Assembly (NCBI RefSeq): GCF_044647545.1
Contig: NZ_CP172818.1
Source of the DNA: Escherichia coli
GTDB taxonomy: Bacteria > Pseudomonadota > Gammaproteobacteria > Enterobacterales > Enterobacteriaceae
Strand: one strand, 5' to 3'
Length of the DNA: 64,000 nt
The notes below the pieces were generated by a model. That model made no database searches, had not been told where the DNA came from, and worked only from the letters and a program-made list of their open reading frames with translations. The translations under genes were made by a program, and so were the position numbers. Below, one piece after another: positions 9,533-40,728 of this stretch. Each line of letters starts with the position of its first letter. The first letter of the stretch is position 1.

Positions 9533-9955
<423 letters not shown>

Positions 9956-11002: not shown

Positions 11003-12100
11003 TCAGGCGCTTTGTGCGAGAGCAAGTTCCTCATCGCGGGTTTCAATACGCTCGTCGCCGTTATACAGCCGCGCATGTTGCAGGCCGACGAACAGACGAT
11101 CGCCGCGCACTGGCGCATCATCCCCGCGCATCACCACCGTCAAGGGTTCGTCATACCATCCCAGCGGCTGCACCACTAATTGGGTGTAGTGACCTTTCGG
11201 GCTGGCTTCCAGTACCTGTACGGGTAGCGGCGAATCGAGGCTGGTACGGCGGCTGATATCCACTTCCCACGGACGCAGGAAGAGATCCACCGGCCCCTGA
11301 TACGCAGGTGTATAGCCCAGCGGCCAGCGATGTGCGCCAACATGGAACTGCCCGCCGCGAATGGTTCCCTGCAGGCGGTTCACTTCGCCCATAAATTCGA
11401 GTACAAAACGGGTCGCTGGTTCGCGCCATACCTGGTCCGGTGCATCAGCCTGCTCGATATTGCCCTGGCTCATCACCACTACACGATCGGCTACTTCGGT
11501 CGCTTCTTCCTGGTCATGGGTCACAAACACGCTGGTGAATTTCAGCTCTTCATGTAACTGACGCAGCCGGCGACGCAACTCTTTACGCACCTGCGCATCC
11601 AGCGCGCCAAACGGTTCATCAAGCAGCAGAATTTGCGGTTCTACGGCAAGCGCGCGCGCCAGCGCCACACGCTGTTTCTGGCCGCCGGAAAGCTGCGCAG
11701 GATAGCGGTCTGCCAGATGGGCAAGCTGCACCATCTCCAGCAATTTTGTCACTTTCGCTTTGATAGCTGCGGCATTCGGGCGCTCGCGACGCGGCAGCAC
11801 CGTCAGGCCGAAAGCGATATTGTCGAACACCGTCATATGGCGGAACAGCGCGTAATGCTGAAACACGAAACCGACTTTACGATCGCGCGCATGCAGGCGG
11901 CTAACGTCGGTGCCGTGGAAGCGAATATGCCCGCTGGTTTGATGCTCCAGCCCGGCGATAATGCGCAGCAGCGTGGTTTTCCCGGAACCGGACGGCCCCA
12001 GCAATGCGACCATCTGACCAGAAGGAATATCCAGTGAGATATCGTTCAGCACCTGGGTGCGACCAAAAGACTTCTTAATATTGGCAATCTCAATGCTCAT
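11003..12100 (-). CDS. cysA: sulfate/thiosulfate ABC transporter ATP-binding protein (365 aa)
   Basis: [54 protein letters not shown]...; Walker A and LSGGQ signature present. Confidence 0.97.
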
Positions 12101-14920: not shown

Positions 14921-14958
14921 GGGAAAAGACGAAATCCTCCCCACAAATGCAGGGAGGA
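14921..14958 (-). terminator. putative intrinsic terminator downstream of ucpA
   Basis: Stem tcctccc/gggagga (14935-14941 and 14952-14958) followed on the - strand by a T-rich run; about 13 nt past the ucpA stop, upstream of cysP. Confidence 0.45.
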
Positions 14959-20543: not shown

Positions 20544-20579
20544 AAAAAGGCCAGTCAGTGTGTTACTGGCTGGCCTTTA
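20544..20579. terminator. bidirectional hairpin terminator between yfeW and yfeX
   Basis: aaaaaggccagtcagtgtgttactggctggccttt: stem ggccag...ctggcc flanked by an A-run and a T-run. Confidence 0.55.
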
Positions 20580-25082: not shown

Positions 25083-26135
25083 TCACCCCCATTCCCGCAT
25101 CCGCTGATGCAGCGTCAGTGACGGCTTCTCGGCAAACAGTTGCTGATAATCCGTGGCGAATTGCCCCAGATGCCAGAATCCCCACTGCATGGCGGCGTCT
25201 TTTACCGTCATACTTTGCGACCACGGGCTTATCAGTTCGCGGCGCACGGCGTTCAGGCGAATGCGTTTCAGCCACGCGTTTGGGCCAATGCCTAAAATAG
25301 CGTGAAAAGCGTTTTGTAGCGTGCGGCGGCTGACATGTAGTTGATTACACAAGTCCAGCACCGTCACCGGTTCGGACATGTTTTCCAGCACATATTCACG
25401 GGCGCGGGAAAGCAATCGACGGTAACTCTGATGACTGATGCTTTCCGCCGTCACCATTGGCTGCGCTTCTTCCAGCATCGCCCCCATCGCCATTAGCAAG
25501 TTATCCCCCAGCACTTTTCGCACTGCAGGCTGATGGAGATTTTCCGGGTTCTCGCAAAACGTCGCCAGCGCCTGTTGGACAAAGCCCCACAGAGCGGCTT
25601 TATGCTGCTCTTTCACTTCCAGCGCCGACTGGCTACGCAGCATATGTAATACCCGATCCGGATTATGCAAAAAGTTAGCCTGACGAGTGATGACATCTTC
25701 AGAAAGCACTACGCCCAGGATCGTGTAATCGTCCGGCGTACTTAATTCAAACTCGGTTCCACCCGGGCGCGTCGCAATTTCTGCGCTTCCCAGACATTGC
25801 GAACCGATAAATCCCTGCTCACCGCGCGTCGCCGGAATGCCAAACCAGAACGAGTTCGGCCAGACCAGGCACGACTGACGCAGCGCCAGACCAGTGTATT
25901 CACGAAAAACCTGAATATCATCGAGTAGAATTTCCGTAAATTCACCATGAAACTTGCCCGGATGCAGCTGATCGTAAATCTGCTGCCAGGCGGTAATTGT
26001 CAAAGCATGTTCATAGACATCCGTTGTCTGTCGTTGATGAACATTATCCACTTCGACCTTCGGCGTGAGCTTCAGGTTTTCGGGTAAGGGTTCATGATAA
26101 AGATGGTGCAAATTGGCTGTACGGGTCTTTTTCAT
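25083..26135 (-). CDS. eutR: AraC-family activator of the eut operon, EutR (350 aa)
   Basis: [23 protein letters not shown]... with a C-terminal AraC-type HTH; last gene of the eut cluster; its stop is 5 bp from the convergent hemF stop. Confidence 0.93.
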
Positions 26136-26180: not shown

Positions 26181-26681
26181 TTAATGGGGCTTGAGACGAT
26201 AACGACTACTGCGTTTACGTAACGTCCCGGCAGAAAAGAGCTGTTCGAGCGCATTTCTGGCTTTTTCCAGCGGCCAGCCAAAGTGGGCTGCCACTTCTCC
26301 TGCCGTCATTCCCTGACGTACTGATGTTAACAGCGCCAACAACTCGTCAGCAGATTCCGCGACGATAACTGGCGCGTCGGGTTCCTTTACGGGTTGCTTC
26401 GGCTGGCGGTTAAAGCCAGTAACCAGCCACTGGGTGTCATCGTCTGGCCGACCGATCTCCTTACGGCTGATGACACGCCCGGTACGCATCGCGGCAGCAC
26501 AACCTGCGTCCAGCGCCGCACGACACGCCGCCAGATCGCCTTCCACCACCAGCGTTAGGCGACCAGGGTCAAGCACTTCATGGCTGAGCAGACGAACGTT
26601 AGCTGCTTTGAGCATGGCATCCGCTGCATCTATCGCGGCGACCATGCCGTCAACTTCCAGCAATCCCAGTGCATTGATCAT
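26181..26681 (-). CDS. eutK: microcompartment shell protein EutK (166 aa)
   Basis: MINALGLLEVDGMVAAIDAADAMLKAANVRLL...; BMC domain. Confidence 0.9.
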   Translation of the reverse strand: MINALGLLEVDGMVAAIDAADAMLKAANVRLLSHEVLDPGRLTLVVEGDLAACRAALDAGCAAAMRTGRVISRKEIGRPDDDTQWLVTGFNRQPKQPVKEPDAPVIVAESADELLALLTSVRQGMTAGEVAAHFGWPLEKARNALEQLFSAGTLRKRSSRYRLKPH

Positions 26682-26693
26682 CGGCAACCTCCG

Positions 26694-27353
26694 TTACGCA
26701 CGCTGGATTGGATTACGCGCGATTTCCAGCACTGCATCGGTAAAGGCGTTACAGGCTGCTTTACACGCGGCCTGGCTACCGGTTAAAAATGCTGCCGAGT
26801 AGTTGGTTTCAGACGGTGGCGGGACATAGGTCACCAGCTGCACGTCGGCAGATTTCAACGCTGCATCAATGCCGTAGGTCGCTTCCAGCGGCGGTGCCAC
26901 CAGATACGCCATCGGATCGCCAAGCGTGATCCCGGCGGTTGATGAGAGATAAGAACCGGTACGCGAAACGACATGTGCCAGGAAGGCTGTGTTTTCTGCG
27001 TCATTAGCCCACTGGAAAGCAGCGCCATTTTCAATATTTGCAACCATCGCATCCAGACCAGCACGCACTTCCGCCGGGTTTGGCCCACCCAGCATAATCA
27101 GCACCTCACCGGCAGTCGGTGACGGGCCGTGTGCAGCGCCCGCATACAGCGAGCGACCATATACCACTTCGACCATCGCCTGCTTGGTCGCTTCGTCAGC
27201 CGCAATGTAGGTGACGTCATCTGAATCAGCAGAAATCAGCCCGAGGCTACGAATATGCGGCGGCAATTTCAGTTCACGTGCAAATTCGGCGTTAACGGAG
27301 GCAATCACCCGCATGGCGGTTACCGACGGTCGAATCAAATCTAAAGCTGGCAT
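26694..27353 (-). CDS. eutL: microcompartment shell protein EutL (219 aa)
   Basis: [58 protein letters not shown]... Confidence 0.93.
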
Positions 27354-27362
27354 GATGCCTCC

Positions 27363-28250
27363 TTATCGGGTCATGTTGATGCCGGATGCTTTCTGCTCCA
27401 GCATACGTTTCGCCAAATCCACAATGACGGCTGCGGCTTCAACCGGCGGCGTGCCGCCCTGGTGAATGTTAGAGATACAGGTGCGATCGGCCTCAACGGT
27501 GGTCGCCATACGCGGCGAATAAACGGCGTAGCAGGAGAGGCTTTCTGACTGCCCCAACCCCGGACGTTCGCCCACCAGCAGGATCACTACTTTCGCGCCG
27601 AGGATCTCACCGATCTGATCTTCAATCTTCACGCGACCATAACGAACAAAGAATGGCGTGCCGACTTTCAGCCCGGCCTGTTTCAGGCCCGCCATCAGCG
27701 GCGGCAGGATCTCTTCGTAGTTCACGGTGATCGCATCAGTTGACAGGCCATCAGAAATAACGACCTGCACGTCCGGATTAGCAACACACTGTGCTTTCAG
27801 CGCTTCAACAGCTTCTGCACACAGGCGGCGGCCCATATCCGGGCGAGTCAGGTAGAGATTTTTGTCGCTGATTTCGGAGCGGACTTCCAGCAAGCCCTGC
27901 GCTTTCACCCACTCTTCCGGTACTTCTTTCAGAACGGTATCTTTCGAACGAGAGTGATCGGCCAGGAAACGCAGCAACGCCTGGGTACGCGGACGCGGAC
28001 CGGCACGACCGGTACAAACACGGGCCACGGTGCTGCGACGCAGTTCTGTTAATACGTCTGCGCGATGCGGGTTTTCAACACCAATCCACGCTTTTGCTTC
28101 CGCAGAACCTAAATCCAGCGCGCAGCTTTCCGAGGTCACCGGTGCCGCACAGGTGGTGGTGGCGCACTTTGCTTCTGACGGCGCGGGGGCCGCTTGTCCC
28201 ATTGACGCCATCACGCTGCGTACAATTTCTTCAATCTGTTTTTGATCCAT
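27363..28250 (-). CDS. eutC: ethanolamine ammonia-lyase small subunit EutC (295 aa)
   Basis: [19 protein letters not shown]...; full length. Confidence 0.95.
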
Positions 28251-28270
28251 GATGTGTTATCTCCGCGTCA

Positions 28271-29575
28271 TCAGAAGAACAGTGACGGATCGCCCGCCCG
28301 TTTGGTCAGGCGACCGTTTGCCATAATGCCCATGCTTTCCAGCCAGCGTTCAAACTCCGGTGACGGGCGCAGATTCAGTAACTGACGCACAGTGGCAGTG
28401 TCGTGGAATGCGGTGGTCTGATAGTTGAGCATGATGTCATCACCCAGCGGCATCCCCATGATGTAGTTGCAGCCTGCGGTGGCGAGCAGGATCATCAGGT
28501 TTTCGTTGAGGTTCTGGTCAGCGTCAGCGTGGTTGGTGTAGCAGCAGTCACAGCCCATAGAGATGCCGCTCAGCTTGCCCATAAAGTGATCTTCTAAGCC
28601 CGCGCGGATAATCTGGCGGTCGTTGTAGAGATACTCCGGCCCAATAAAACCGACCACGGTGTTGACGATAAACGGATCGTAATGACGCGCCAGCCCATAG
28701 TTACGCGCTTCCATCGTCACCTGGTCAGCGCCGAAGTTAGCGCCAGCGGACAGCGCCGAACCTTGTCCGGTTTCGAAGTAGAGGCAGTTTTCCCCGGCGA
28801 TACGGTTAAACTCTGCACCCACTGCGCGCGCTTCGTCGAGCATCGCCAGCTCCACGCCAAACTCTTTCAGCCCTTTTTCGCTGCCGCAAATACTCTGGAA
28901 AATCAGCCCGCCCGGTGCGCCGCGACGAATCGCTTCGATCTGGGTGGTGACGTGCGCCAGTACGCAGCCCTGAGTTGGGATGTTGAATTTGTCGATCACG
29001 CCGTAGATGGTGTCCAGCACGCGGCTTAAGTTTTCCACGTCGTCCGTCACCGGGTTGACGCCGATCACCGCATCGCCCACCCCGAAGGAAAGCCCTTCGT
29101 AGATTTGCGCAGCGATACTTTGCACGTCGTCACGGGTGTCATTTGGCTGCAAACGGGCGCTGAAGGTGCCCGGAATACCAATAGTTGTATTGGCCTTTTT
29201 GATTACCGGCATTTTCTTCGCGCCGTAGATCAGGTCCGCGTTAGAACTGATCTTCGCCACCGCCGCGACCACTTCCGAGGTCAACCCTTTGCGAGTAAAG
29301 GCAATGTCGTCAACGCTGGTTTCGTCGCTCAGGACATACTCACGCAGTTCGCTGATGCTCCAGTTTTTAATCTGGTTGTAGGCCGTTTCGTTAACATCGT
29401 CCTGAATCAGCCGCGTCACGCAGTCATCTTCATAGGCAATCACCGGATTATTGCGGATGTCCGCTACGGTCATTTCCGACAACACCTGCTTTGCCGCCAC
29501 GCGCTCCTGTGAGCTTGCCGCAGCAACGCCCGCCAGCACATCCCCCGAACGCAGTTCGTTGGCTTTAGCCAGCAC
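28271..29575 (-). CDS. eutB: ethanolamine ammonia-lyase large subunit EutB; 5' end and start codon unresolved (coordinates are the minimal GTG-initiated ORF)
   Basis: ORF from GTG 29573-29575 gives (V/M)LAKANELRSGDVLAGVAAASSQERVAAKQVL... The same frame continues upstream without a stop and encodes FGNVYQFKDVKE, but there is no in-frame ATG/GTG/TTG before the eutA stop. See findings. Confidence 0.85.
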   Translation of the reverse strand: MLAKANELRSGDVLAGVAAASSQERVAAKQVLSEMTVADIRNNPVIAYEDDCVTRLIQDDVNETAYNQIKNWSISELREYVLSDETSVDDIAFTRKGLTSEVVAAVAKISSNADLIYGAKKMPVIKKANTTIGIPGTFSARLQPNDTRDDVQSIAAQIYEGLSFGVGDAVIGVNPVTDDVENLSRVLDTIYGVIDKFNIPTQGCVLAHVTTQIEAIRRGAPGGLIFQSICGSEKGLKEFGVELAMLDEARAVGAEFNRIAGENCLYFETGQGSALSAGANFGADQVTMEARNYGLARHYDPFIVNTVVGFIGPEYLYNDRQIIRAGLEDHFMGKLSGISMGCDCCYTNHADADQNLNENLMILLATAGCNYIMGMPLGDDIMLNYQTTAFHDTATVRQLLNLRPSPEFERWLESMGIMANGRLTKRAGDPSLFF

Positions 29576-29616
29576 CTCTTTTACATCCTTAAACTGATAT
29601 ACATTGCCGAAAGCCC

Positions 29617-31020
29617 TCAGGAAGGAAATGCGAGTGATTTCACCGTCACCGGCACAACCGATCCGCCAAAAAGAGGCGTACCAATGTCGATATAGTCCCC
29701 CGCGCGGACAATCACTTCGTCAATGACTGCCAACGGGAGTTGTTGTAGCTGTGGGCGCAACAACATGCCCAGAGCTTTACCAAAGTCCTGCCCGGCCACC
29801 ACCAGCAGGGGATGCGGATTCGGAAAACGCGCGACGAAATCGACCAACGCGTTGATGACCGTCAGTACCGCGGCGTAACGCACAGGCAGCGAGGCGGGAA
29901 GCGCCAGCACGTACGCATCAGTTTTGGGATCAAGATCCAGTTGAATCAGCGCCTGTTGCCAGGCACTCACCAGATCCTTTTCATCAATTGGGATCGCCAC
30001 CGGCAAGTTGCGCAGCGGCAGTTGTACGCCCTCCAGCCAGATTGTGCTGCCAGAGAGCGAAAGGGTATGTGCACCCGCGCCAATCACCGTGGCGCGCACG
30101 GTTTGCGCCGGAAACTGCACGTTCATCTCACGCAGGCGCGGATGGTCATGCAGCGCCGTTGCCAGAAGCGGGCCAATATCGGCAAAACAGAACGGGTCGG
30201 CGGGCTGGTGGCGATAACATTCGCCCACGCCGCCAGAAAGCGTAATGATTTCGGGCGTAACACCTGCGGGCAGCAAACCGGTTTGCATTAATGCCTGCGC
30301 GAGCGGCGAAAGCGTTCCGTCAATCACTTCGACAATCAGCTCTGCCATCCGCCGGGTAACCTGCACCAGCTGCGCGCCGGTCAGCGAACGGGCGTCGGTG
30401 CCTGCGCCGAAGCACTCATCCACAATCATCTGCCCCGGTTTATGAGCGTAAACCACGCGCCCCTGGCTGTCGGTTTCCAGCAGGCGACCGCCGACATTGA
30501 GGCAGGCGGTGCCGCTGATTTTTCCGGCATCGAACAGGGCGTAGTTCGCGGTACCACCGCCGATGTCGATATTCAGTACCCGACACAGCCGTTGTTCAGA
30601 AAGGGTTTGCGCCCCGGCACCGTGACCGGCGATCACGGATTCGAGATGCGGTCCAGCGCTGGCGACGACAAAATCGCCCAGCGACCGGGAGAGCGTCATC
30701 ACCGCCGGGCGAGCGTTGCGGTTTTTCGCGCTTTCACCGGTGATGATGATGGCACCAGAATCAACGCTTTCCGGCGCAATGCCCGCAGCCTGATATTGCT
30801 CGAGGATTAAGGTTTTCAGTTCCGCTTCTTTTAAACCACCCTGTTTATCGACAGGGGTAAAGAACACCGGGCTTTGCCAGCTAATTTCGCGTTTGATGAA
30901 TTCGTAGCGCGGCACCTGCGACACCGCCGCACGGTTAACCAGCTCCAGGTGGGAGAAAATCACCTGGGTGGTGGTGGTGCCGATATCGATACCGACGCTC
31001 AGTAGCTGGCGAGTGTTCAC
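29617..31020 (-). CDS. eutA: ethanolamine ammonia-lyase reactivating factor EutA (467 aa)
   Basis: MNTRQLLSVGIDIGTTTTQVIFS...; full length; stop TGA at 29617-29619. Confidence 0.93.
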   Translation of the reverse strand: MNTRQLLSVGIDIGTTTTQVIFSHLELVNRAAVSQVPRYEFIKREISWQSPVFFTPVDKQGGLKEAELKTLILEQYQAAGIAPESVDSGAIIITGESAKNRNARPAVMTLSRSLGDFVVASAGPHLESVIAGHGAGAQTLSEQRLCRVLNIDIGGGTANYALFDAGKISGTACLNVGGRLLETDSQGRVVYAHKPGQMIVDECFGAGTDARSLTGAQLVQVTRRMAELIVEVIDGTLSPLAQALMQTGLLPAGVTPEIITLSGGVGECYRHQPADPFCFADIGPLLATALHDHPRLREMNVQFPAQTVRATVIGAGAHTLSLSGSTIWLEGVQLPLRNLPVAIPIDEKDLVSAWQQALIQLDLDPKTDAYVLALPASLPVRYAAVLTVINALVDFVARFPNPHPLLVVAGQDFGKALGMLLRPQLQQLPLAVIDEVIVRAGDYIDIGTPLFGGSVVPVTVKSLAFPS

Positions 31021-32243
31021 GATTGCGCCTCCGCTTCGGTTTTAGCCGCGCTCGCGTCTTCTTTAGGTACCAGCATCATCGCCACGCCAATCGCCGTTAC
31101 GCCGCCGATCAACTTGCCGACAATCATCGGGAAGATCATGGCGTTCATGTTGGCAGCGGCGAAGCCTAAGTGGTCGCCCAGGGCGAAAGCAGCGGAAACG
31201 GCGAAGGCACAGTTGATGACTTTGCCGCGGGTATCCATCTGCTTCATCATGCCAAACATCGGGATGTTGTTGGCAAGCGTTGCCACCATGCCGGCTGCCG
31301 CGATGTTGTTCATATTCAGCACCTTACCGACGCTCATCAGCGGTTTTTCAAACCAGCGAGTCAGCAGCAGCACCATCGGATACGCCCCCAGCAGCACGCA
31401 GGAGATAGAACCGATAACTTCAATGGCGCGCATCACTTCACCGGGTTTGTCGCCTGGAGCCATGAAGATCGGATCCAGACCGGGGATCAGTTCCCAACCG
31501 AGCAGGAATTTCACTACCGCAGCGGCAAGACCGAGGGTGATCAATGCAACGAGGAATTTGGCGAAGATCTGGAAGCCGTTGATCATTTTTTCCGGGATGA
31601 ATTTCAGCCCCAGCGCCACCAGCACCGCAACGATAAGTACCGGGATCATGTTCATCAGGATCAGCGCAAAGGTGAATTCCACCGGCTGACCGTTGATCTG
31701 CACACCGGAGTACATAGCAACCAGACCACCAGCAATACAGCCAATCGGAATGGTCACAATGCCCGCCAGCACGCCGAGCGCCAGATAACGACGGTCAGAA
31801 GGTTCGATAATGCCGAGCGCCACCGGAATGGAAAACACAATCGTTGGCCCCATCATCGACCCGAGAATTAACCCAGAGTATAGCCACGCTGCTACGTCGC
31901 CGCCCGCCAGCTCTTTGGCGAGGAAGAAGCCGCCCATATCGCACGCCAGCAGTGTTCCGGCGAACATTGACGGGTTTGCGCCGAGCATTTCGTAAACCGG
32001 GATAATCACCGGTCCGAGTACGTGGGCCAGAACAGGTGCCAGCGCGGTCATACCAACCATCGCCAGGCCCAGTGCGCCCATCGCCATAAAGCCTTCTTCA
32101 AACTGCCCGCCGGATCCTTCGATACTTTTACCGAACTTACCGAGGAAACGAGCAGAACCGCCGAACTGCGACAGGATCCTGTCTACGGCAGCTATCAGCA
32201 TAAAGAACATCATGATGTACATGATGATTTCGTTAATTCCCAT
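31017..32243 (-). CDS. eutH: ethanolamine permease EutH (408 aa)
   Basis: Polytopic membrane protein MGINEIIMYIMMFFMLIAAVDRIL...; overlaps eutA by 4 nt. Confidence 0.93.
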   Translation of the reverse strand: MGINEIIMYIMMFFMLIAAVDRILSQFGGSARFLGKFGKSIEGSGGQFEEGFMAMGALGLAMVGMTALAPVLAHVLGPVIIPVYEMLGANPSMFAGTLLACDMGGFFLAKELAGGDVAAWLYSGLILGSMMGPTIVFSIPVALGIIEPSDRRYLALGVLAGIVTIPIGCIAGGLVAMYSGVQINGQPVEFTFALILMNMIPVLIVAVLVALGLKFIPEKMINGFQIFAKFLVALITLGLAAAVVKFLLGWELIPGLDPIFMAPGDKPGEVMRAIEVIGSISCVLLGAYPMVLLLTRWFEKPLMSVGKVLNMNNIAAAGMVATLANNIPMFGMMKQMDTRGKVINCAFAVSAAFALGDHLGFAAANMNAMIFPMIVGKLIGGVTAIGVAMMLVPKEDASAAKTEAEAQS

Positions 32244-32313
32244 CGCCTTTACTCCCTGTTAGTTGTTATTTATCCGGCCAACACACCCACGCGGCAAGCG
32301 TCGCATCCGGCAT

Positions 32314-33501
32314 TTATTGCGCCGCTGCGTACAGGCCGACAATCTGCTCCAGGCTGGCGGTACGCGGGTTGCTGCGCAGACAAATATCTTCCAGCGCGGC
32401 CTGCGCCCATGCGCCGTAATGCGCAGATGTCGCACCAACATCGCCCAGTCGTTTACCAATCCCAACTTCAGCAATCAGCTCACTTACCGCGTTAATAGCG
32501 TCACGATCGTCGGATTTTTTAGTTCGCAGCGCCCGACCAATCTGACTAAACCGATCACGACAAACCATCCGGTTAAATTCCATCACCGTTGGCAACAACA
32601 TGGCGTTCGCCAGACCGTGCGGAATATGCAGCGCCGCCCCTGGCTGATGCGCCATCGCGTGGCATAACCCAAGCCCGGCGCTGGAAAACGCCATTCCCGC
32701 CATACATGAAGCCAGCAACATGCTCTCGCGCGCGGCAAGGTCATGGCCGTAGCCCACCGCTTTCGGCAGTGATTTGCCAATCATCGCAATGGCACCAATC
32801 GCCAGGCTGTCGGTAAACGGTGTAGCGTTCAGCGCGCTGTACGCTTCAATGGCATGGGTTAACGCATCAATGCCAGTCATCGCCGTGACATGCGACGGCA
32901 CGCCTTCGGTCAACGCGGCGTCGAGAATCGCCACATCCGGCATCAGCGAGGCATGGGCTAACACCTGCTTGCGCCCGCTCACCGCGTCGATAATCACCGT
33001 TACGTTGGTGGTTTCAGAGCCGGTTCCGGCGGTCGTTGGAATGGCAATCAACGGCAGGCGCGGTTGCAGAACGCTGGTTTCTGACATTTCTGCCAGCGTG
33101 CTATCGGGGTTCGTCACCAGCAACGCCACGGCTTTCGCCGCATCCAGCACCGAGCCGCCGCCAAACGCGATCACCCCGTCACAACCTGATTCACGCAACT
33201 GCGCCACGGCTGCACACACGTCGGTGATGCATGGTTCGCCCACCGGACATGGCCAGAGCGTCATGGCGATACCTTTAACGGCCAGGCTACGCGTCAGCCC
33301 GGCGGTCATCCCTGCCTGATGCAAAAAGCTGTCTGCCATCACGAACAGATGTTTCAACCCACGCGTTTGCGCTTGCTGCCCACAACTGCTCACCGCGCCC
33401 GGACCGCAAAGCGTCACCGGTGGAACGCTAAATGTTTTTACCCGTTGCAGATTCAGGGTATCGAACGCCTGAAAGAGCGCGGTCTGCAATTCATTTTGCA
33501 T
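32314..33501 (-). CDS. eutG: iron-containing alcohol dehydrogenase EutG (395 aa)
   Basis: MQNELQTALFQAFDTLNLQRVKTFSVPPVTLCGPGAVSSCGQQAQTRGLKHLFV... Confidence 0.93.
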   Translation of the reverse strand: MQNELQTALFQAFDTLNLQRVKTFSVPPVTLCGPGAVSSCGQQAQTRGLKHLFVMADSFLHQAGMTAGLTRSLAVKGIAMTLWPCPVGEPCITDVCAAVAQLRESGCDGVIAFGGGSVLDAAKAVALLVTNPDSTLAEMSETSVLQPRLPLIAIPTTAGTGSETTNVTVIIDAVSGRKQVLAHASLMPDVAILDAALTEGVPSHVTAMTGIDALTHAIEAYSALNATPFTDSLAIGAIAMIGKSLPKAVGYGHDLAARESMLLASCMAGMAFSSAGLGLCHAMAHQPGAALHIPHGLANAMLLPTVMEFNRMVCRDRFSQIGRALRTKKSDDRDAINAVSELIAEVGIGKRLGDVGATSAHYGAWAQAALEDICLRSNPRTASLEQIVGLYAAAQ

Positions 33502-34327
33502 ATAGCCCCTCCGCTTTCTCTCGCCCGCTACTGGCGATCGCCAGCGGGGTCATAAACAAACTGTGCTGCGGTAAATGCACCTGTAACGCCGGGAATTGTT
33601 TGCGAAACAGTTCCGCCACGCCCGGTTGCATACAAGAGCCGCCCGCCAGCCATAAATCAGTAATGCCCTGCCCTTCAATATGCCGGGCGACAATGTCCGC
33701 CATTTTTTCGTACACTGGTTTCACCGCGGGCCAAATCTCTTCACCGTGACCGCGCTTGTACTGCTCTGCCTCTTCCAGCGAAATACGACGATTTCCGGCG
33801 AGAGTCAGAGAGATGTGATGTCCGCCGGTCGCTTCATCCGCCGAGTACGTCACCTTGCCCTTTTTCACGATGGCAATACCAGTAGTGCCACCGCCGATAT
33901 CCACTACACCAGCGTTGTCCAGTTGCAGCAGATCCGCGACTGCGGTTGGCTCATCCAGTACATGGCTCACTTCCAGTCCGGCAGATTCCAGCACGTTGAT
34001 GGAAATACGCGGGTCCGTACCAGGAGGAAATGAGGTCGCCGCATGGCTAAAACGGCGACCGAATTGCTGCTCAAGGGTGTCGAGATGGCGACGAACAATG
34101 GTGACCGCACCGAAGAAATCCCAGACGATGCCGTCGCGGACCACATCGGCCCAGTCGAGGCATACCGCCACCGGCAGACCGTCGCGGTCGACAACCATCG
34201 ACACCACATCGCAAGTGCCCAGATCCACCCCCAGCCACAGCGGAGATTCCGTCGCGGCGGGCGTCTGGTTACACAGCGTTGCCGCCGTTTGCAGACGTGG
34301 GGTGAGCCATTGTTCATCGTGCGCCAT
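33491..34327 (-). CDS. eutJ: Hsp70-like chaperone EutJ (278 aa)
   Basis: MAHDEQWLTPRLQTAATLCNQ...LWLGVDLGTCDVVSMVVD (actin/Hsp70 ATPase fold); overlaps eutG. Confidence 0.92.
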   Translation of the reverse strand: MAHDEQWLTPRLQTAATLCNQTPAATESPLWLGVDLGTCDVVSMVVDRDGLPVAVCLDWADVVRDGIVWDFFGAVTIVRRHLDTLEQQFGRRFSHAATSFPPGTDPRISINVLESAGLEVSHVLDEPTAVADLLQLDNAGVVDIGGGTTGIAIVKKGKVTYSADEATGGHHISLTLAGNRRISLEEAEQYKRGHGEEIWPAVKPVYEKMADIVARHIEGQGITDLWLAGGSCMQPGVAELFRKQFPALQVHLPQHSLFMTPLAIASSGREKAEGLYAK

Positions 34328-34337
34328 CGGTTACTCC

Positions 34338-35741
34338 TTAAACAATGCGAAACGCATCGACTAATACACAGCGACGCAGACGGACAAACGTCCGCGCGCT
34401 GGTTACCCCTTCACCGGTTGGCGTGGTGATGGTCATCGTGGTCCAGCCTTCCCCGCCCAGCCCCAGCCCGGCAATGCACGGTCCGTTCTTAACGAAAATG
34501 CTGGTATCAATGGCATTCGCCATCTGGTTCATGTTCTCGATATTGCGCGAGTGCATTGCCGCCGTGTGGTGGCAACCGCCTTCCAGTTTCACCGCCAGCG
34601 CAATGGCATCCGCCACGTTGGCGACGCGCACGACGGGCAGCACCGGCATCATCAGTTCAGTCACAGCAAACGGATGTTCTGCGGTGGTTTCTACAAACAG
34701 CAGTCGCGTTTGTTCCGGAACTTTAAGGCCGATTGCCGCCGCGATTTTCGCCGCATCGCGACCAACCCAGTCACGGCTGACGATGCTTTTTCCGCGCTCG
34801 TCGATATTTTTCAGCAACACCGGTTGCAGCTGCTGCGCCTGCTCTGCGGTCAGTTTCACCGCGTGCTGGCCTTCCATCAGACGCATCAGTTCATCGGCTA
34901 CGCTATCCACAACAATCAGTACCTTTTCGTCGGCACAAATGATGTTGTTATCGAAAGACGCGCCTTTGACGATGGACTGAGCAGCACGGGCGAGGTCGGC
35001 GGTTTCATCCACCACTACCGGCGGGTTGCCAGCGCCTGCGGCAATCAGACGTTTATTGGTGTGTTTACGCGCCGCTTCTACTACCGCTTCGCCGCCGGTC
35101 ACCACCAGCAGGCCGATGCCCGGAAACTTGAACAAACGTTGAGCGGTTTCAATATCCGGATTTGCCACAGTAACCAGTAAGTTTTCCGGCCCGCCTGCGG
35201 CAACAATCGCCTGGTTGAGCAGCGTGATCGCCCGCTGGGAGACTTTTTTCGCCGCCGGATGCGGGGCAAAAATGACGCTGTTGCCCGCGGCAATCAGGCT
35301 GATGGCGTTATTAATGACGGTTGCCGCCGGGTTGGTGGACGGAGTTACCGAAGCCACCACGCCCCAGGGCGCGTTTTCAATTAAAGTCAGGCCGTTGTCG
35401 CCAGTCAGCACTTGCGGAGAGAGGCACTCAACGCCTGGTGTGCCGCGCGCCTGAGCGACGTTTTTGGCAAATTTATCTTCAACGCGCCCCATGCCGGTTT
35501 CACTGACGGCAAGTTCCGCTAAATCTCTGGCGTGTTTTTCGCCTGCTTCACGAATGGCAGCAATGGCTAACTGGCGCATTGCCACGCTTTTTAACCCTTG
35601 CTGGGCGACTTTGGCTGCCGCAACGGCGTCATCCAGGGACGCGAAAACGCCCATCTCATGAACGGCGGCGGGCGGCGTGTCACTGCTTTGCATTTTCAGC
35701 AGTACCGCTTTCACCACCTGTTCAATATCCTGTTGATTCAT
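34338..35741 (-). CDS. eutE: CoA-acylating acetaldehyde dehydrogenase EutE (467 aa)
   Basis: MNQQDIEQVVKAVLLKMQSS...; aldehyde dehydrogenase fold. Confidence 0.95.
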   Translation of the reverse strand: MNQQDIEQVVKAVLLKMQSSDTPPAAVHEMGVFASLDDAVAAAKVAQQGLKSVAMRQLAIAAIREAGEKHARDLAELAVSETGMGRVEDKFAKNVAQARGTPGVECLSPQVLTGDNGLTLIENAPWGVVASVTPSTNPAATVINNAISLIAAGNSVIFAPHPAAKKVSQRAITLLNQAIVAAGGPENLLVTVANPDIETAQRLFKFPGIGLLVVTGGEAVVEAARKHTNKRLIAAGAGNPPVVVDETADLARAAQSIVKGASFDNNIICADEKVLIVVDSVADELMRLMEGQHAVKLTAEQAQQLQPVLLKNIDERGKSIVSRDWVGRDAAKIAAAIGLKVPEQTRLLFVETTAEHPFAVTELMMPVLPVVRVANVADAIALAVKLEGGCHHTAAMHSRNIENMNQMANAIDTSIFVKNGPCIAGLGLGGEGWTTMTITTPTGEGVTSARTFVRLRRCVLVDAFRIV

Positions 35742-35752
35742 GATGTTCTGCC

Positions 35753-36040
35753 TTATTTGTGGAAAATGACCTGACCGCCAGACACCACCTCATCGACAAT
35801 GCCAATCACGCACAGATCGACCGGTGACGTTTCGCTTTTATGCGCCTGGCGGGCGGAACTGCCACTCACCAGTAACACCCACTCCCCGGTTCCCGCGCCA
35901 ATATTGTCGATGGCGACGGCGCATTGCCCGTCAGGATTACCTTGTGGATCAATCATTTCCACCATCAGCAATTTGTCATGCGCCAGTCCGTGATGGCGTA
36001 CGGTACAAACAATTTGTCCAGTGACGACTGCCAGTTTCAT
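35753..36040 (-). CDS. eutN: microcompartment vertex protein EutN (95 aa)
   Basis: MKLAVVTGQIVCTVRHHGLAHDKLLMVEMIDPQGNPDGQCAVAIDNIGAGTGEWVLLVSGSSARQ... Confidence 0.9.
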   Translation of the reverse strand: MKLAVVTGQIVCTVRHHGLAHDKLLMVEMIDPQGNPDGQCAVAIDNIGAGTGEWVLLVSGSSARQAHKSETSPVDLCVIGIVDEVVSGGQVIFHK

Positions 36041-36146
36041 ACCCGCCTCCGTGGCGTATTTCAGGTAAAAGCTCCCCCTACCCTCCGCAGAAGGTAAAAT
36101 GAAAAAGGAGAGAGCGTGACGCCCGAATCGACGTCACACAGGGTGA

Positions 36147-36440
36147 TTACAGGTTGCTGCTATCGCCTTTCAGGCCGATCGGGAAGACTTCTTCCAGGTC
36201 GCCGTGCGGACGCGGGATAACGTGTACAGATACCAGCTCGCCGATACGCTGTGCCGCTGCAGCACCTGCGTCGGTCGCGGCTTTACAGGCTGCAACATCA
36301 CCACGAACCATGGCAGTACACAGGCCGCCGCCAATCTGCTTAACACCAACCAGCTTGACGCGCGCAGCTTTCACCATCGCGTCAGAAGCCTCAATCAGTG
36401 CAACCAGGCCCCGGGTTTCGATCATTCCTAATGCTTCCAT
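36147..36440 (-). CDS. eutM: microcompartment major shell protein EutM (97 aa)
   Basis: ORF track 36147..36482; start taken at [40 protein letters not shown] (BMC domain); ATG at 36438-36440. Confidence 0.93.
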
Positions 36441-36478
36441 TGTGCTTTCCTCTTTATCAGGGTCCAGAACGGGACCGT

Positions 36479-37495
36479 TCATTCAACCAGTGTTTGTAAA
36501 CTGCTTTCGCGGTTCACTTCTGTCTGACGCGGCACAGCTGCCACCAGCGCCAGTTCGATAATTTCCTGCACGCTACAACCACGAGAGAGATCGTGCATCG
36601 GCGCGGCAAGTCCTTGTATCAATGGCCCGACGGCACGATATCCGCCAAGTCGTTGTGCGATTTTGTAGCCAATATTTCCTGCCTCCAGCGACGGAAAAAC
36701 CATCACATTGGCTTTGCCCTGTAACGGGCTGGCTGGCGCTTTTTGCGCCGCCACTTCCGGCACGAAGGCGGCGTCAAACTGCAACTCGCCATCGACAACC
36801 AGCTTTGGTGCGCACTCACGGACGATTTCTGTCGCCTGCTGGACGTTGGCAACGCAGGGGTGACGGGCACTACCGTTGCTGGAAAACGACAGCATCGCCA
36901 CGCGCGGTTCTTCTCCGGTGATGGCGCGCCAGGTTTCGGCGCTGGCAAGCGCGATATCCGCCAGTTGTGCCGCCGTCGGCTGCGGCACCACGCTGCAATC
37001 GGCAAAGCCCAACGCCGGACCGCTGTACTGTGGCAGCATCAGGAAAATGGATGAGAGCGTTTTACAGCCTGGCTGCAAGCCGATAATGCGTAATCCGGCA
37101 CGCAGCACATTCGCCGTGGAAGAGAGGTTGCCCGCGATACAGACATCCGCTTTGCCGGCGCTGACCATTGCGGCGGCGAACATCAGCGGATCGGTAAGTT
37201 TTTCCAGCGCATCCGGCGGCGTTTTTTCGCCCGCGCGGGCCAGCCAGCGATGAGCAAATTCTTCCCGCATTGCGAGGTTGCCATGCGGATCAATCACCTG
37301 TAGCCCGTCCATCGCCACGCCATGACTGAGCGCAAACTGACGAAGTTCAAACGGATTGGCGACCAGAATGGGCGTTGCCAGACCTTGTTGATGTAAATAT
37401 TGCGCAGCTTTCAGCACACGTTGATCTAACGCATCCGGAAAAACTACTCTGGCGGGCGCTCGCAACGCCAGTTCACGACAACGTTTAATAATCAT
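36479..37495 (-). CDS. eutD: phosphotransacetylase EutD (338 aa)
   Basis: [48 protein letters not shown]... Confidence 0.93.
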
Positions 37496-38295
37496 TGCGT
37501 TTCCCCCAGTCGTTGTTGGATCTGCTTCACCGTTAGCGGTTGTTTCGCTACGCTCAGGATCATCATCACGTAGACCGTGCTCGAAAGGCGGTTCAGCGCC
37601 TGCAAAATGTCCGGGCGTAATACTTCAAAGCTGCGGGTGATAAAGACCTGCGCCGCTACGGTTTCGGTTTCCCGCACTTTGGTGCGTAGCAGATTTAGCA
37701 ACGCCGCATCGCGCCCGTGGCTGGCTTCCGGCACCAGATGATCGTGGTCGAGATAACGCAGCGGCTGGTGAGAAAGCCGATGCAGATCTTCGTCAGAAAG
37801 CCCGACAATCGCCTGGCAGGCCAGCGGTTCCCCCAGCGCATCGGCACGCATAATGTTGCCAAGACGCGAACGGATATCCGCCAGCCACGGCTGCCACGGT
37901 TCCGCCAGTTCAATTTGCAGCCACACTGCCAGCGCAATGGTGCTGTCGAGAACCGCGCGAAAAGCCAGGCGCGGATCGCTTTTGGCAACCATTTTTTCCG
38001 CCGACAGGTGAGTCAGCGTATCCGGCTTTTTTGCCACCGGCTGGCGGCACAGTTCGCAGCACGCCTGCGGATGTTCATCGCTACTGGTAAGCCCGTGAAC
38101 GGGCTGCGGCTGCTGCTGTTCATCGTCAACAAACAGGCGGCCCTGCTCGTCAATAAACTTGATGCGCAGATGGCGGCTTTCCAGTAACTCCCGGGCAGAG
38201 GGCGTCAGGCGACTGTCCGCAGGGAGATGGATCTCTGCGCCTTCGCTGAGCGTATGGTTCGCTCTTAGCCATGCTTCGGTGATGAAATCTTTCAT
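37492..38295 (-). CDS. eutT: corrinoid adenosyltransferase EutT (267 aa)
   Basis: [52 protein letters not shown]...; overlaps eutD and eutQ by 4 nt each. Confidence 0.9.
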
Positions 38296-38993
38296 AGGGA
38301 TTGCCAGTTAGCCGGCCAGGCGACATACAGGAATTTCACGCTGGATGTCGTACCAAATTCGATACTGGAGCCTTTCGGGATAAACATCACATCGCCCGCT
38401 TTGGCGATCATAGTTTCGCCTTCGTGGCGAACATGCAGCTCCCCTTCCAGCACCATGTCGATTTCGTCGTAGTTCAGGGTCCACGGAAAGAAGGCGTTCT
38501 CCCACTGCATAAAACCAGCGGCCATACTGCTGCCGTCGTCTCCGGTCACGAGATCAGTCAAGCCTACGCAGTGCGGTTCCGCGCCATCGAAACGACCAAA
38601 CTTGACGCTGCTGCCATCAATCACTTTGATGCCGCCTTTGCCGGTCACCGATTTGAAACTCGGCTGCATTGCACCCTGCTCCAGTGACTGTTTTTCCTTC
38701 ATCACTTTTTCCATCAGCTGCGCGACCAGGCTTTCGGTAAACTGGCCTTCCGGTAGCTGGGCGATGATGGTTTCGCGGATGCGCTGGCTTTCGGTTTTAT
38801 CGGCTGGCACGCTGGCGGGAACGGACGTCGTTACCGCAGTCGATTCATCACATTCGGTGATGGTAAAACCCAACAGATCAGCCACTTCACGAGCTTCCGG
38901 GGTAATAATGCTGGCGCGCAGAACCACGGACATTGCCAGTTCGCCGCGCGCGTGTGCTTCACGAATATCATTCGCTGTGATGAGTTTTTTCAC
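38292..38993 (-). CDS. eutQ: cupin-fold protein EutQ (233 aa)
   Basis: MKKLITANDIREAHARGELAMSVVLRASIITPEAREVADLLGF... Confidence 0.9.
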   Translation of the reverse strand: MKKLITANDIREAHARGELAMSVVLRASIITPEAREVADLLGFTITECDESTAVTTSVPASVPADKTESQRIRETIIAQLPEGQFTESLVAQLMEKVMKEKQSLEQGAMQPSFKSVTGKGGIKVIDGSSVKFGRFDGAEPHCVGLTDLVTGDDGSSMAAGFMQWENAFFPWTLNYDEIDMVLEGELHVRHEGETMIAKAGDVMFIPKGSSIEFGTTSSVKFLYVAWPANWQSL

Positions 38994-39447
38994 CTGCTTC
39001 CTCCTGTTTGGTGAGAGATGCCAGATAATCCACCAGTTGCTGCACGCTTTGCGGGTCGTGGCTGTTTAGCTCGAAAATCGGCTCTTCGAAGCCCGTCTCA
39101 AGCAATAACTTTCGCGTTGCGGCGACGTCAGCATCTGGCATGTCCGTTTTACTGATGACGGCGATTTGCCGTTTGCTGACGCCAATATCCAGCAACCCGG
39201 CAGGCAACCGACTTTCCGGGTCATTCGCGCCGTGGACATAGATCAGCATGTCCACATCCTGTAGCGTGGTAATTAAGGCGTGATACCAGCGGGGATGGCT
39301 AAAATATTCACCCGGCGTATCAATATCGCCCTTATCATTAAATTCCACGGCCTGTGTTTTTCTGGCGAGGGTATAATTCCCCTGCAACGCATTAAATAAC
39401 GTTGTTTTTCCTGCCCCGACGGTACCCACAAACGCAATTCGTTTCAT
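38968..39447 (-). CDS. eutP: P-loop NTPase EutP (159 aa)
   Basis: MKRIAFVGTVGAGKTTLFNALQG... (Walker A). Confidence 0.9.
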   Translation of the reverse strand: MKRIAFVGTVGAGKTTLFNALQGNYTLARKTQAVEFNDKGDIDTPGEYFSHPRWYHALITTLQDVDMLIYVHGANDPESRLPAGLLDIGVSKRQIAVISKTDMPDADVAATRKLLLETGFEEPIFELNSHDPQSVQQLVDYLASLTKQEEAGEKTHHSE

Positions 39448-39459
39448 GAATGCCTCGTA

Positions 39460-39795
39460 TTAACTTTTGGTCATTTCACAAAGCGTATAATTTAATAAGC
39501 GTCCTAAACCACTGACGGTTTGTGATAACGCTTCTTCTACTGCGCCCACCGAGCCATAAATCACCAGCGCGCCGCTAAAACGGTCGAGAAAACCGATATG
39601 CACATCGGCGGCTTTCAACGCTAAATCACCGGCGATCATCGCCGTTTCTCCGGGAGTTAGCGTCATAATGCCGATTGCGCCCGCATCCGGAACGCCGATT
39701 TTCTTCGCCAGTTCCTCGCCGGGATGCGCGATGAGATGCGCCAGTGTGACCTGTTTACCGGGCACAAATTCCTGAATGATGCGTTCTTTATCCAT
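39460..39795 (-). CDS. eutS: microcompartment shell protein EutS (111 aa)
   Basis: ORF track 39460..39867; start taken at [32 protein letters not shown]...; ATG at 39793-39795; first gene of the eut operon. Confidence 0.92.
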
Positions 39796-39900: not shown

Positions 39901-40159
39901 TGGAGAGATATTTTATGTTAAGAAAAAAAACATACATTGTATGAATATAAACGGGAACCAATAAGTTTTGTTTATCATATTATATAGACTTCTTTAATTT
40001 TTAATAATTAGCAGAATACATATTTAATTACTGTTGTATTCTAAAAATATTTATCTTCACCCCATTTAAAATAATCTAGGATTTTATTCAGAAAATAAAA
40101 AAGACCCGAAAAAATCCTTCCCCCCCAAAGGCGCTAATTCATCCATATTAACTCAAGAC

Positions 40160-40710
40160 TTCATAGAAAATTTTCTTAACCCCCATATAGAGCCTCTCTA
40201 AGCCTATTATCCTTTTATTATCAAATCTCTAACCCATCTTTACCTATCTGCAAAAACACACACAAACCACTATTTTATTTTTTTTAAAAACGGAAAAAAG
40301 CATAAGGAAACGAAACAAATGAGAAAAATTTCAAAAAAAAAGAAAAATAGAAAAAAAATAATAAAAAAAACGAAAGCGAATACGAAAGGAAGAAAAAAAA
40401 AAACAAAAAATTTCAAATTCCCCAACCCACAGCCACAAAGCAAAACGAACAAACCTGAGGAACTTAAAGAAAAAGAGTATATGAAACTTAAACTAACACC
40501 TAGCTAACTATAGTAACCGAAGAAAGAACACAAAAAAGAAACAAAAATACAAAAAAAAACTAAACAAAAAAAAAAGAAAATCATAAAATTTTTATCTCAA
40601 CATAAAAAAAAAATTGAACAAAAAAAAAATGACCCCAAAAAAAACACCCCAAAAAACAACAAAAGGAACACAACAAAACAAACAAAAAACACCCCAACAC
40701 CACAGGAAGG
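40160..40710. repeat. unclassified adenine-rich low-complexity tract (no coding capacity)
   Basis: By manual count 39-44 A per 60 nt on the + strand across 40321-40680; at least four A10-A11 homopolymer runs (40393-40403, 40566-40575, 40604-40613, 40620-40629); a C7 run at 40120-40126; short degenerate repeats (aaaaaacaccccaa appears twice). Only low-complexity K-rich and F-rich pseudo-ORFs. Confidence 0.7.
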
Positions 40711-40728
40711 GAGAGGAATCAGCTAAAC

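Follow-up and report, generated by a model that had tools for sequence, protein, structure and literature searches.

The ethanolamine utilisation operon of an Escherichia coli assembly: an empty prophage attachment site and a eutB start probably lost to local sequence dropout

Background

In Escherichia coli K-12 the cryptic prophage CPZ-55 lies between eutA and eutB, two genes of the operon for ethanolamine utilisation (eut). The stretch of DNA analysed here, 64,000 nucleotides (nt) of the E. coli contig NZ_CP172818.1 and hereafter called the window, carries a eut operon in which these two genes are adjacent. The locus raises the question of whether the missing prophage sets this strain apart, and of whether the operon is intact as it is written. 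The window very probably contains the canonical 17-gene eut operon of E. coli and Salmonella with an empty attachment site (attB), in a source assembly that suffers from local dropout errors, among them the loss of the eutB start. The operon itself is ordinary and already known, and is free of the prophage, as is usual.

The promoter upstream of eutS is activated by EutR in the presence of ethanolamine and adenosylcobalamin, as is known for the family and is carried over to this window by gene identity only. EutS, EutM, EutN, EutL and EutK build a protein shell, inside which the B12-dependent ammonia-lyase EutBC converts ethanolamine to ammonia and acetaldehyde. EutA keeps EutBC active and EutT makes the cofactor, while acetaldehyde is turned into acetyl-CoA, acetyl-phosphate and ethanol via EutE, EutD and EutG. 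The substrate is imported by EutH.

Results

The eutA/eutB attachment site

The reference set consisted of 5,426 complete E. coli genomes (5,423 were counted for the junction query). No CPZ-55 gene had a protein match (tblastn, E<=1e-3) or a DNA match (blastn) in the 64-kb window. The genes eutA and eutB follow each other without an insert, with 41 nt from eutA to the body of eutB, and the att core was found once between positions 28000 and 32000. A duplicated core flanking an insert was not present in the window (one copy, 29617-29624). As the core is present once, the attB is unoccupied. In MG1655 CPZ-55 (6,790 bp, with intZ and yffL to yffS) follows directly on the eutA stop codon and has a copy of CTTCCTGA at either end, in agreement with the published target duplication of 8 bp, TCAGGAAG (PMC6379469). 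The earlier note on this DNA, which had been made from the letters, was right that CPZ-55 is absent and that eutA and eutB are adjacent, since the att core is single and homology to CPZ-55 is absent; nothing is inserted at the boundary.

The absence of the prophage does not, however, distinguish this window. Full-length CPZ-55 was found in only 213 of the 5,426 genomes, essentially K-12 derivatives, and partial intZ-related elements (80-90% identity) in about 200 further genomes. The junction query matched one contiguous place in 4,964 of 5,423 genomes, and in a published survey of 638 strains CPZ-55 was present in 8% (PMC6379469). Because CPZ-55 is rare and the junction mostly contiguous, the prophage-free state is unremarkable: the empty attB at the eutA stop codon is the usual E. 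coli state and K-12 is the exception.

The eutA/eutB site has been described as a prophage insertion hot spot, in which the uropathogenic E. coli (UPEC) strain U71 carries an IntZ-family element (PMC6652756). This was confirmed by strain 20AR0300 (NZ_CP195498.1), in which eutB and eutA are separated by a different intZ element of about 11 kb, a second family member on the same attB. That element (retrieved segment 12178-23088) has, besides many hypothetical genes, one for an HNH endonuclease and one for an intZ-like integrase with about 85% DNA identity to the CPZ-55 intZ. The eutR gene of 20AR0300 is frameshifted.

Loss of the eutB start

When the 64 kb are compared with strain EC11 (NZ_CM169490.1), one substitution and seven deletion-type differences are found. 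One of these deletions lies at the eutA/eutB junction, where the coding strand reads ...CCTTCCTGAGGGAACGACTTATGAAACTAAAGACCACATTGTTCGGCAATG in EC11 and ...CCTTCCTGAGGGCTTTCGGCAATG in the window. The 27 missing nt comprise the spacer bearing the Shine-Dalgarno (SD) sequence, the eutB ATG and codons 1-7, and they are present in all comparators, namely EC11, K-12 MG1655, the Logan contigs and all the top matches among the 5,426 genomes. As written, eutB has its first in-frame start at position 29575, the GTG of codon 20, and yields a protein of 434 amino acids (aa) against the normal 453 aa. The window EutB is therefore without its 19 N-terminal residues, and its NCBIfam alignment begins at profile position 18. 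The wild-type EutB of the EC11 clade matches PDB 3ABO chain A over residues 1-453 with one substitution. No good alternative eutB start with a spaced SD sequence was found downstream.

The 27-nt loss cannot be produced by one contiguous deletion and requires at least two separate ones; it begins 3 nt after the 8-bp att core. When the collapsed junction was searched by megablast in the complete genomes, only split or gapped matches were obtained, and the exact 37-nt junction pattern had 0 matches in metagenome contigs of the Joint Genome Institute (JGI). A EutB of 434 aa is recorded in seven Logan contigs, yet five of the six that were retrieved have the wild-type junction, and their short proteins have causes such as a TTG-to-TAG change (contig L005) or noisy contigs. 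In Logan contig L010 the anchor sequence was not found and the junction was not read. Judged by these comparisons, an error in sequencing or assembly is the most likely origin of the loss, rather than a mutation of the strain.

Two assemblies with the same anomalous sites

BS-04 (NZ_CP172819.1) and BS-01 (NZ_CP172816.1) are RefSeq assemblies of one project and belong to lineages other than that of the window; BS-04 is 98-99% identical to K-12. With the collapsed yfeK hairpin of the window as query they match best and are the only assemblies ranked above the wild-type clade, and each of them has its own, different collapse of the same hairpin arm. At the eutA/eutB junction the 63 nt of the wild type are reduced to 36 in the window, 45 in BS-04 and 42 in BS-01, each a different deletion-only subsequence. 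Moreover, the loss of a T between ucpA and cysP (14926) is identical in the three assemblies, and BS-04 has a further 4-nt loss beside the yfeX-pbp4b hairpin.

The NCBI Prokaryotic Genome Annotation Pipeline (PGAP) gives EutB proteins of 452 aa in BS-04 (WP_400165766.1; retrieved segment 28146-29504) and 451 aa in BS-01 (WP_400168505.1; retrieved segment 28415-29770), both with private accessions and a 4-nt overlap with eutA. These two accessions are probably erroneous database entries that result from collapsed junctions. The eutH gene of BS-01 is frameshifted. A literature search on the BS-01/BS-04 project and its sequencing method returned nothing relevant.

Other differences from EC11

The loss at the 3' end of yfeK is in frame and changes the C-terminus from ...TDKTVPAQ-stop to ...TDKTL-stop; like the loss at the eutB start, these 9 nt cannot be removed by one contiguous deletion. 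The window forms at 14926 and 20559 had no exact match among the 5,426 genomes and the lesion at 9949 is also private. At 11569 and 14926 K-12 is the same as EC11, and at 20559 it still has the base that is missing from the window. As K-12 sides with EC11 at these three sites, the window is the outlier.

The spacer between eutG and eutH, of 70 nt in the window, is longer in EC11 (116 nt) and in K-12 (216 nt). In EC11, as in the nearest relatives, it contains a repetitive extragenic palindromic (REP) element, whose hairpin in EC11 falls within the most stable 1.1% of 50-nt windows.

A further anomaly lies upstream of eutS. Positions 40103-40717 are 615 nt of A/C-rich, low-complexity sequence (A 331, C 125, T 102, G 57) which stand in for a 1,995-bp segment of EC11. 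The longest common subsequence with that segment is 615 of 615, compared with 595-600 for shuffled sequences and 604 for the reverse complement, so that the stretch is an ordered subsequence of it. It had no match in any E. coli genome of the reference set. To our knowledge no natural process makes 1,995 bp decay to 615 nt in this way.

In EC11-clade genomes the space between eutS and maeB is taken by a two-gene island of about 2 kb (retrieved EC11 segment 17235-19221; window 40103-40717). Its genes in EC11 encode a glycosyltransferase and a protein of the 'glucosamine inositolphosphorylceramide transferase family'. In K-12, BS-04 and BS-01 the eutS-maeB intergenic region has only 292 nt, so that the locus beside the eut promoter is variable. 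A scan of the region upstream of eutS for promoters and terminators was uninformative.

The sole substitution with respect to EC11 (11569, in cysA, 11003-12100, - strand) replaces Trp (TGG) by Arg (CGG). K-12 CysA also has Trp at this site, and the exact protein with the Trp-to-Arg change had no record in a collection of 153 billion genes. A separate feature was seen between ucpA and cysP, where about 146 nt are inserted in K-12 (K-12 segment 19646-19787) at window positions 14926-14930; neither the window nor EC11 has this insertion, which is probably a small repeat element.

Relatives of the window

The 14-kb eut interval matches 5,424 of the 5,426 genomes, of which only 59 reach at least 99% identity; the best matches have 99.8% identity, in two pieces. 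The window is included in this clade of about 59 genomes, and by its sequence the strain is assigned to the EC11/ECONIH1/MS6198 clade. The alignment to MG1655 gave 95-98.5% identity per aligned block (95.2% in the lowest), with about 1,700 mismatches in total. By annotation transfer from EC11, the 64 kb contain housekeeping genes only. The description of the window as K-12-like was misleading in view of these block identities and of the one substitution with respect to EC11, and the window is no more like K-12 than any E. coli.

Operon content

The ORF listing and the annotation transfer from EC11 place 17 eut genes on the - strand between 25083 and 39795, in the order eutS-P-Q-T-D-M-N-E-J-G-H-A-B-C-L-K-R (Table 1). 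All 17 translated products score above the curated NCBIfam cut-off of the expected Eut family and nearly all are full length. The shell proteins EutS, EutM, EutL and EutK and the vertex protein EutN all score above the curated cut-offs for equivalogs or subfamilies and align at full length, and EutA, EutT, EutE, EutD, EutG, EutH, EutJ, EutP, EutQ and EutR each exceed their cut-offs, with open reading frames (ORFs) that end in proper stops. The coordinates agree with the PGAP-annotated operon of EC11, to which the DNA is identical except at the lesions, and the gene order and tight spacing agree with the PGAP annotations of both EC11 and K-12. From eutS to eutR the spacers are 12, -26, -4, -4, 38, 106, 11, 10, -11, 70, -4, the eutA/eutB junction described above, 20, 9, 12 and 45 nt.

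The 17-gene cluster reported on this strand in the earlier note is confirmed by the ORFs, the EC11 transfer and the NCBIfam scores. The spacing given there (0-13 bp spacers or 1-14 nt overlaps) holds roughly, with the exception of the 26-nt overlap of eutP and eutQ and the spacers of 38 nt (eutD-eutM) and 20 nt (eutB-eutC). The 16 structural genes had also been called uninterrupted: they are contiguous and have no insert, but eutB as written has no start and 27 nt are missing between eutA and eutB. Several parts of the window that resemble assembly errors had been overlooked.

Table 1. Features of the eut operon and differences of the window from EC11, with NCBIfam model and score against cut-off (bits) for the eut products
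Feature	Position	Strand	Description	Evidence or comparison
Collapsed eutA/eutB junction	29606..29616		Net loss of 27 nt	Coding strand TGAGGG-CT-TTCGGC vs wild type TGAGGGAACGACTTATGAAACTAAAGACCACATTGTTCGGC
att core	29617..29624		8 bp, single copy, overlapping the eutA stop codon; unoccupied attB of CPZ-55/IntZ-family elements	TCAGGAAG on +, CTTCCTGA on -
yfeK 3' end	9949		Complex 9-nt loss, 3' arm of inverted repeat	vs EC11
ucpA-cysP	14926		Single T loss, intergenic	vs EC11
yfeX-pbp4b	20559		Single T loss, intergenic, loop of terminator hairpin	vs EC11
Near ypfN	57653		Single T loss, intergenic, beside REP	vs EC11
eutG-eutH spacer	32274..32288		Collapsed REP element, 15 nt (CCGGCCAACACACCC)	61-nt REP in EC11; BLAST break 32273/32289
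Upstream of eutS	39981..40717		Degraded stretch	Deletions build up from 39981; perfect identity resumes abruptly at 40718
eutS	39460..39795	-	Microcompartment shell protein, 111 aa; first gene	NF012012, 247 vs 123, full length; identical to EC11 annotation
eutP	38968..39447	-	159 aa; NCBIfam name acetate kinase of EutP/PduV family	NF012011, 351.7 vs 258
eutQ	38292..38993	-	233 aa, GTG start, 26-nt overlap with eutP	NF012001, 497.6 vs 193
eutT	37492..38295	-	Corrinoid adenosyltransferase, 267 aa	NF011595, 569.5 vs 226
eutD	36479..37495	-	Phosphotransacetylase, 338 aa; pta/eutD in EC11 and K-12	NF007233, 409 vs 310
eutM	36147..36440	-	Hexameric bacterial microcompartment (BMC) shell protein, 97 aa	NF012018, 212.9 vs 133
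eutN	35753..36040	-	Shell vertex protein, 95 aa	NF011992, 210.1 vs 118
eutE	34338..35741	-	CoA-acylating acetaldehyde dehydrogenase, 467 aa	NF011927, 737 vs 403
eutJ	33491..34327	-	Chaperone-like protein, 278 aa	NF011660, 399.6 vs 182
eutG	32314..33501	-	Alcohol dehydrogenase, 395 aa	NF011998, 890 vs 556
eutH	31017..32243	-	Ethanolamine permease or facilitator, 408 aa	NF011665, 872.6 vs 574
eutA	29617..31020	-	Ethanolamine ammonia-lyase reactivase, 467 aa, GTG start	NF007991, 1069.6 vs 799, full length
eutB	28271..29575	-	Ethanolamine ammonia-lyase large subunit, 434 aa, 5'-truncated as written	NF011649, 646 vs 554, profile positions 18-451 of 461
eutC	27363..28250	-	Ethanolamine ammonia-lyase small subunit, 295 aa	NF003971, 339.6 vs 230
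eutL	26694..27353	-	Trimeric tandem-BMC shell protein, 219 aa	NF011934, 400.9 vs 198
eutK	26181..26681	-	Shell protein with C-terminal EutK_C domain, 166 aa	NF012010, 362.1 vs 218
eutR	25083..26135	-	AraC-family activator of the operon, 350 aa	NF007522, 789.6 vs 319

Discussion

That the differences from EC11 are artefacts is suggested by the fact that seven deletions against one substitution, all seven differences being deletion-only, are the reverse of the normal divergence between strains. In addition, the 27-nt and 9-nt losses are not single contiguous deletions, the A-rich stretch of 615 nt is an ordered subsequence of a real 1,995 bp, and every lesion searched for was private to the window among the 5,426 genomes. 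A dropout specific to the method is indicated because unrelated lineages fail at the same unlinked positions while keeping different residues. Such shared failures at the same sites point to a technical artefact and not to biology.

Several points nevertheless weigh against an artefact, which is proposed from sequence comparison only. The hairpin stability at the eutA/eutB junction is only in the 49th percentile, so that it would not account for a dropout there. None of the small lesions frameshifts a gene, four being intergenic and one the in-frame loss of 9 nt at the 3' end of yfeK, and purifying selection on real mutations would give the same frameshift-free pattern. Furthermore, a lesion 3 nt from the att core of an integration hot spot would fit a real excision scar.

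Among the other explanations, the one that survives best is that the 27-nt loss is a genuine mutation, either a spontaneous complex deletion or the scar of an imprecise excision of an IntZ-family element, although we consider this improbable. Its start so close to the att core, in a documented prophage hot spot (PMC6652756) where 20AR0300 holds an intZ element of about 11 kb, is in its favour, as are the want of a good downstream start with a spaced SD sequence and the fact that the small lesions frameshift no gene. Excision by tyrosine recombinases is, however, known to be conservative and scarless, and at least two separate deletions would be needed. The loss is also accompanied by six other deletion-only anomalies, one of them not possible naturally. 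BS-04 and BS-01 have non-identical collapses at this very junction together with the window's other anomalous sites, and the junction occurs in no other genome or metagenome contig. If the lesion were real, eutB would have no translation start and the strain would probably be deficient in ethanolamine ammonia-lyase. The source would then be an EC11-clade isolate whose eutB became start-less through a complex deletion beside the IntZ attB, lyase-deficient without any prophage, a case to which we give the same low probability. The K-12 strain BW25113 has been reported to be Eut-negative, and a genuine lesion would be a different route to that phenotype.

It is still less likely that the shared dropouts reflect a real physical property of the DNA at these loci (a modification, nick or structure, for instance) which E. 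coli strains have in common and which interferes with sequencing, and that the attB region is biologically special. Three assemblies of three lineages do fail at the same positions, and at three of the six small sites the hairpin is very stable. Yet neither a Dam (GATC) nor a Dcm (CCWGG) motif occurs in the collapsed stretches, the best-matching junctions in the 5,426 genomes are all uncollapsed, and with the yfeK-hairpin query only BS-04 and BS-01, from one project, outrank the wild-type clade. On this evidence the cause follows the method or project and not the organism. Hairpins were also considered as the full cause of the dropouts and rejected, since a strong one is found at only three of the six small dropout sites: three are very stable, one is moderate, and the eutA/eutB junction and 14926 fail.

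That the window is K-12 or a derivative that lost CPZ-55 through curing or genome editing and was left with a scar at the junction is next to impossible: the 64-kb gene content is the same as that of K-12 except for small islands and the scar adjoins the CPZ-55 att site, but the blocks aligned to MG1655 are only 95-98.5% identical, some 1,700 mismatches in all stand against one substitution with respect to EC11, and the window holds remnants of the EC11-clade eutS-maeB island, which K-12 does not have. The identity values to MG1655 and EC11 refute a K-12 strain with CPZ-55 edited out, and with it the origin that the earlier note had allowed for, MG1655 with this interval edited out.

Local dropout in the source assembly remains the preferred explanation, and it calls for caution, as the dropouts imitate biological lesions: a start-less eutB by a prophage hot spot, a short REP spacer and a 615-nt pseudo-sequence. 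Other findings from this window, and the annotations of assemblies of the BS-04/BS-01 type, should be read with the dropouts in mind. The biological content is minor: E. coli normally has an intact eut operon whose eutA/eutB site is empty, and the literature already describes this.

Comparison with known systems

BS-04 and BS-01 share with the window deletion-only collapses, at the eutA/eutB junction as well as in the yfeK hairpin, and the loss of a T between ucpA and cysP. They differ from it in the sequence that remains in each collapse, and as they have no eutS-maeB island they offer no counterpart to the 615-nt stretch.

The eut operon of K-12 MG1655 agrees with the window in its genes and in the att core, CTTCCTGA, which lies at the eutA stop codon. 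There, however, the 6,790-bp insert lies between two cores and the eutB start is kept, whereas the window has one core and no insert, and its eutB start is missing as written. The IntZ-family elements of 20AR0300 and UPEC U71 use the attB site that stands empty in the window, which has neither their integrase nor their cargo of about 11 kb.

The closest counterpart is the long 17-gene eut operon of Salmonella enterica and most E. coli (Nissle 1917, UPEC, EC11), which has the same genes, order, strand and overlaps. Its attB is unoccupied as in the window, and its eutA-eutB spacer is 11 nt. Compared with it the window as written is 27 nt shorter at eutA/eutB and 46 nt shorter in the REP spacer between eutG and eutH, and it has lost most of the island that lies upstream of eutS; these three shortfalls are, on the comparisons made here, probably assembly errors. 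In Nissle 1917 the induction of eut by ethanolamine and B12, the microcompartments and growth on ethanolamine have been studied by growth assays, quantitative PCR and electron microscopy (PMC7617246).

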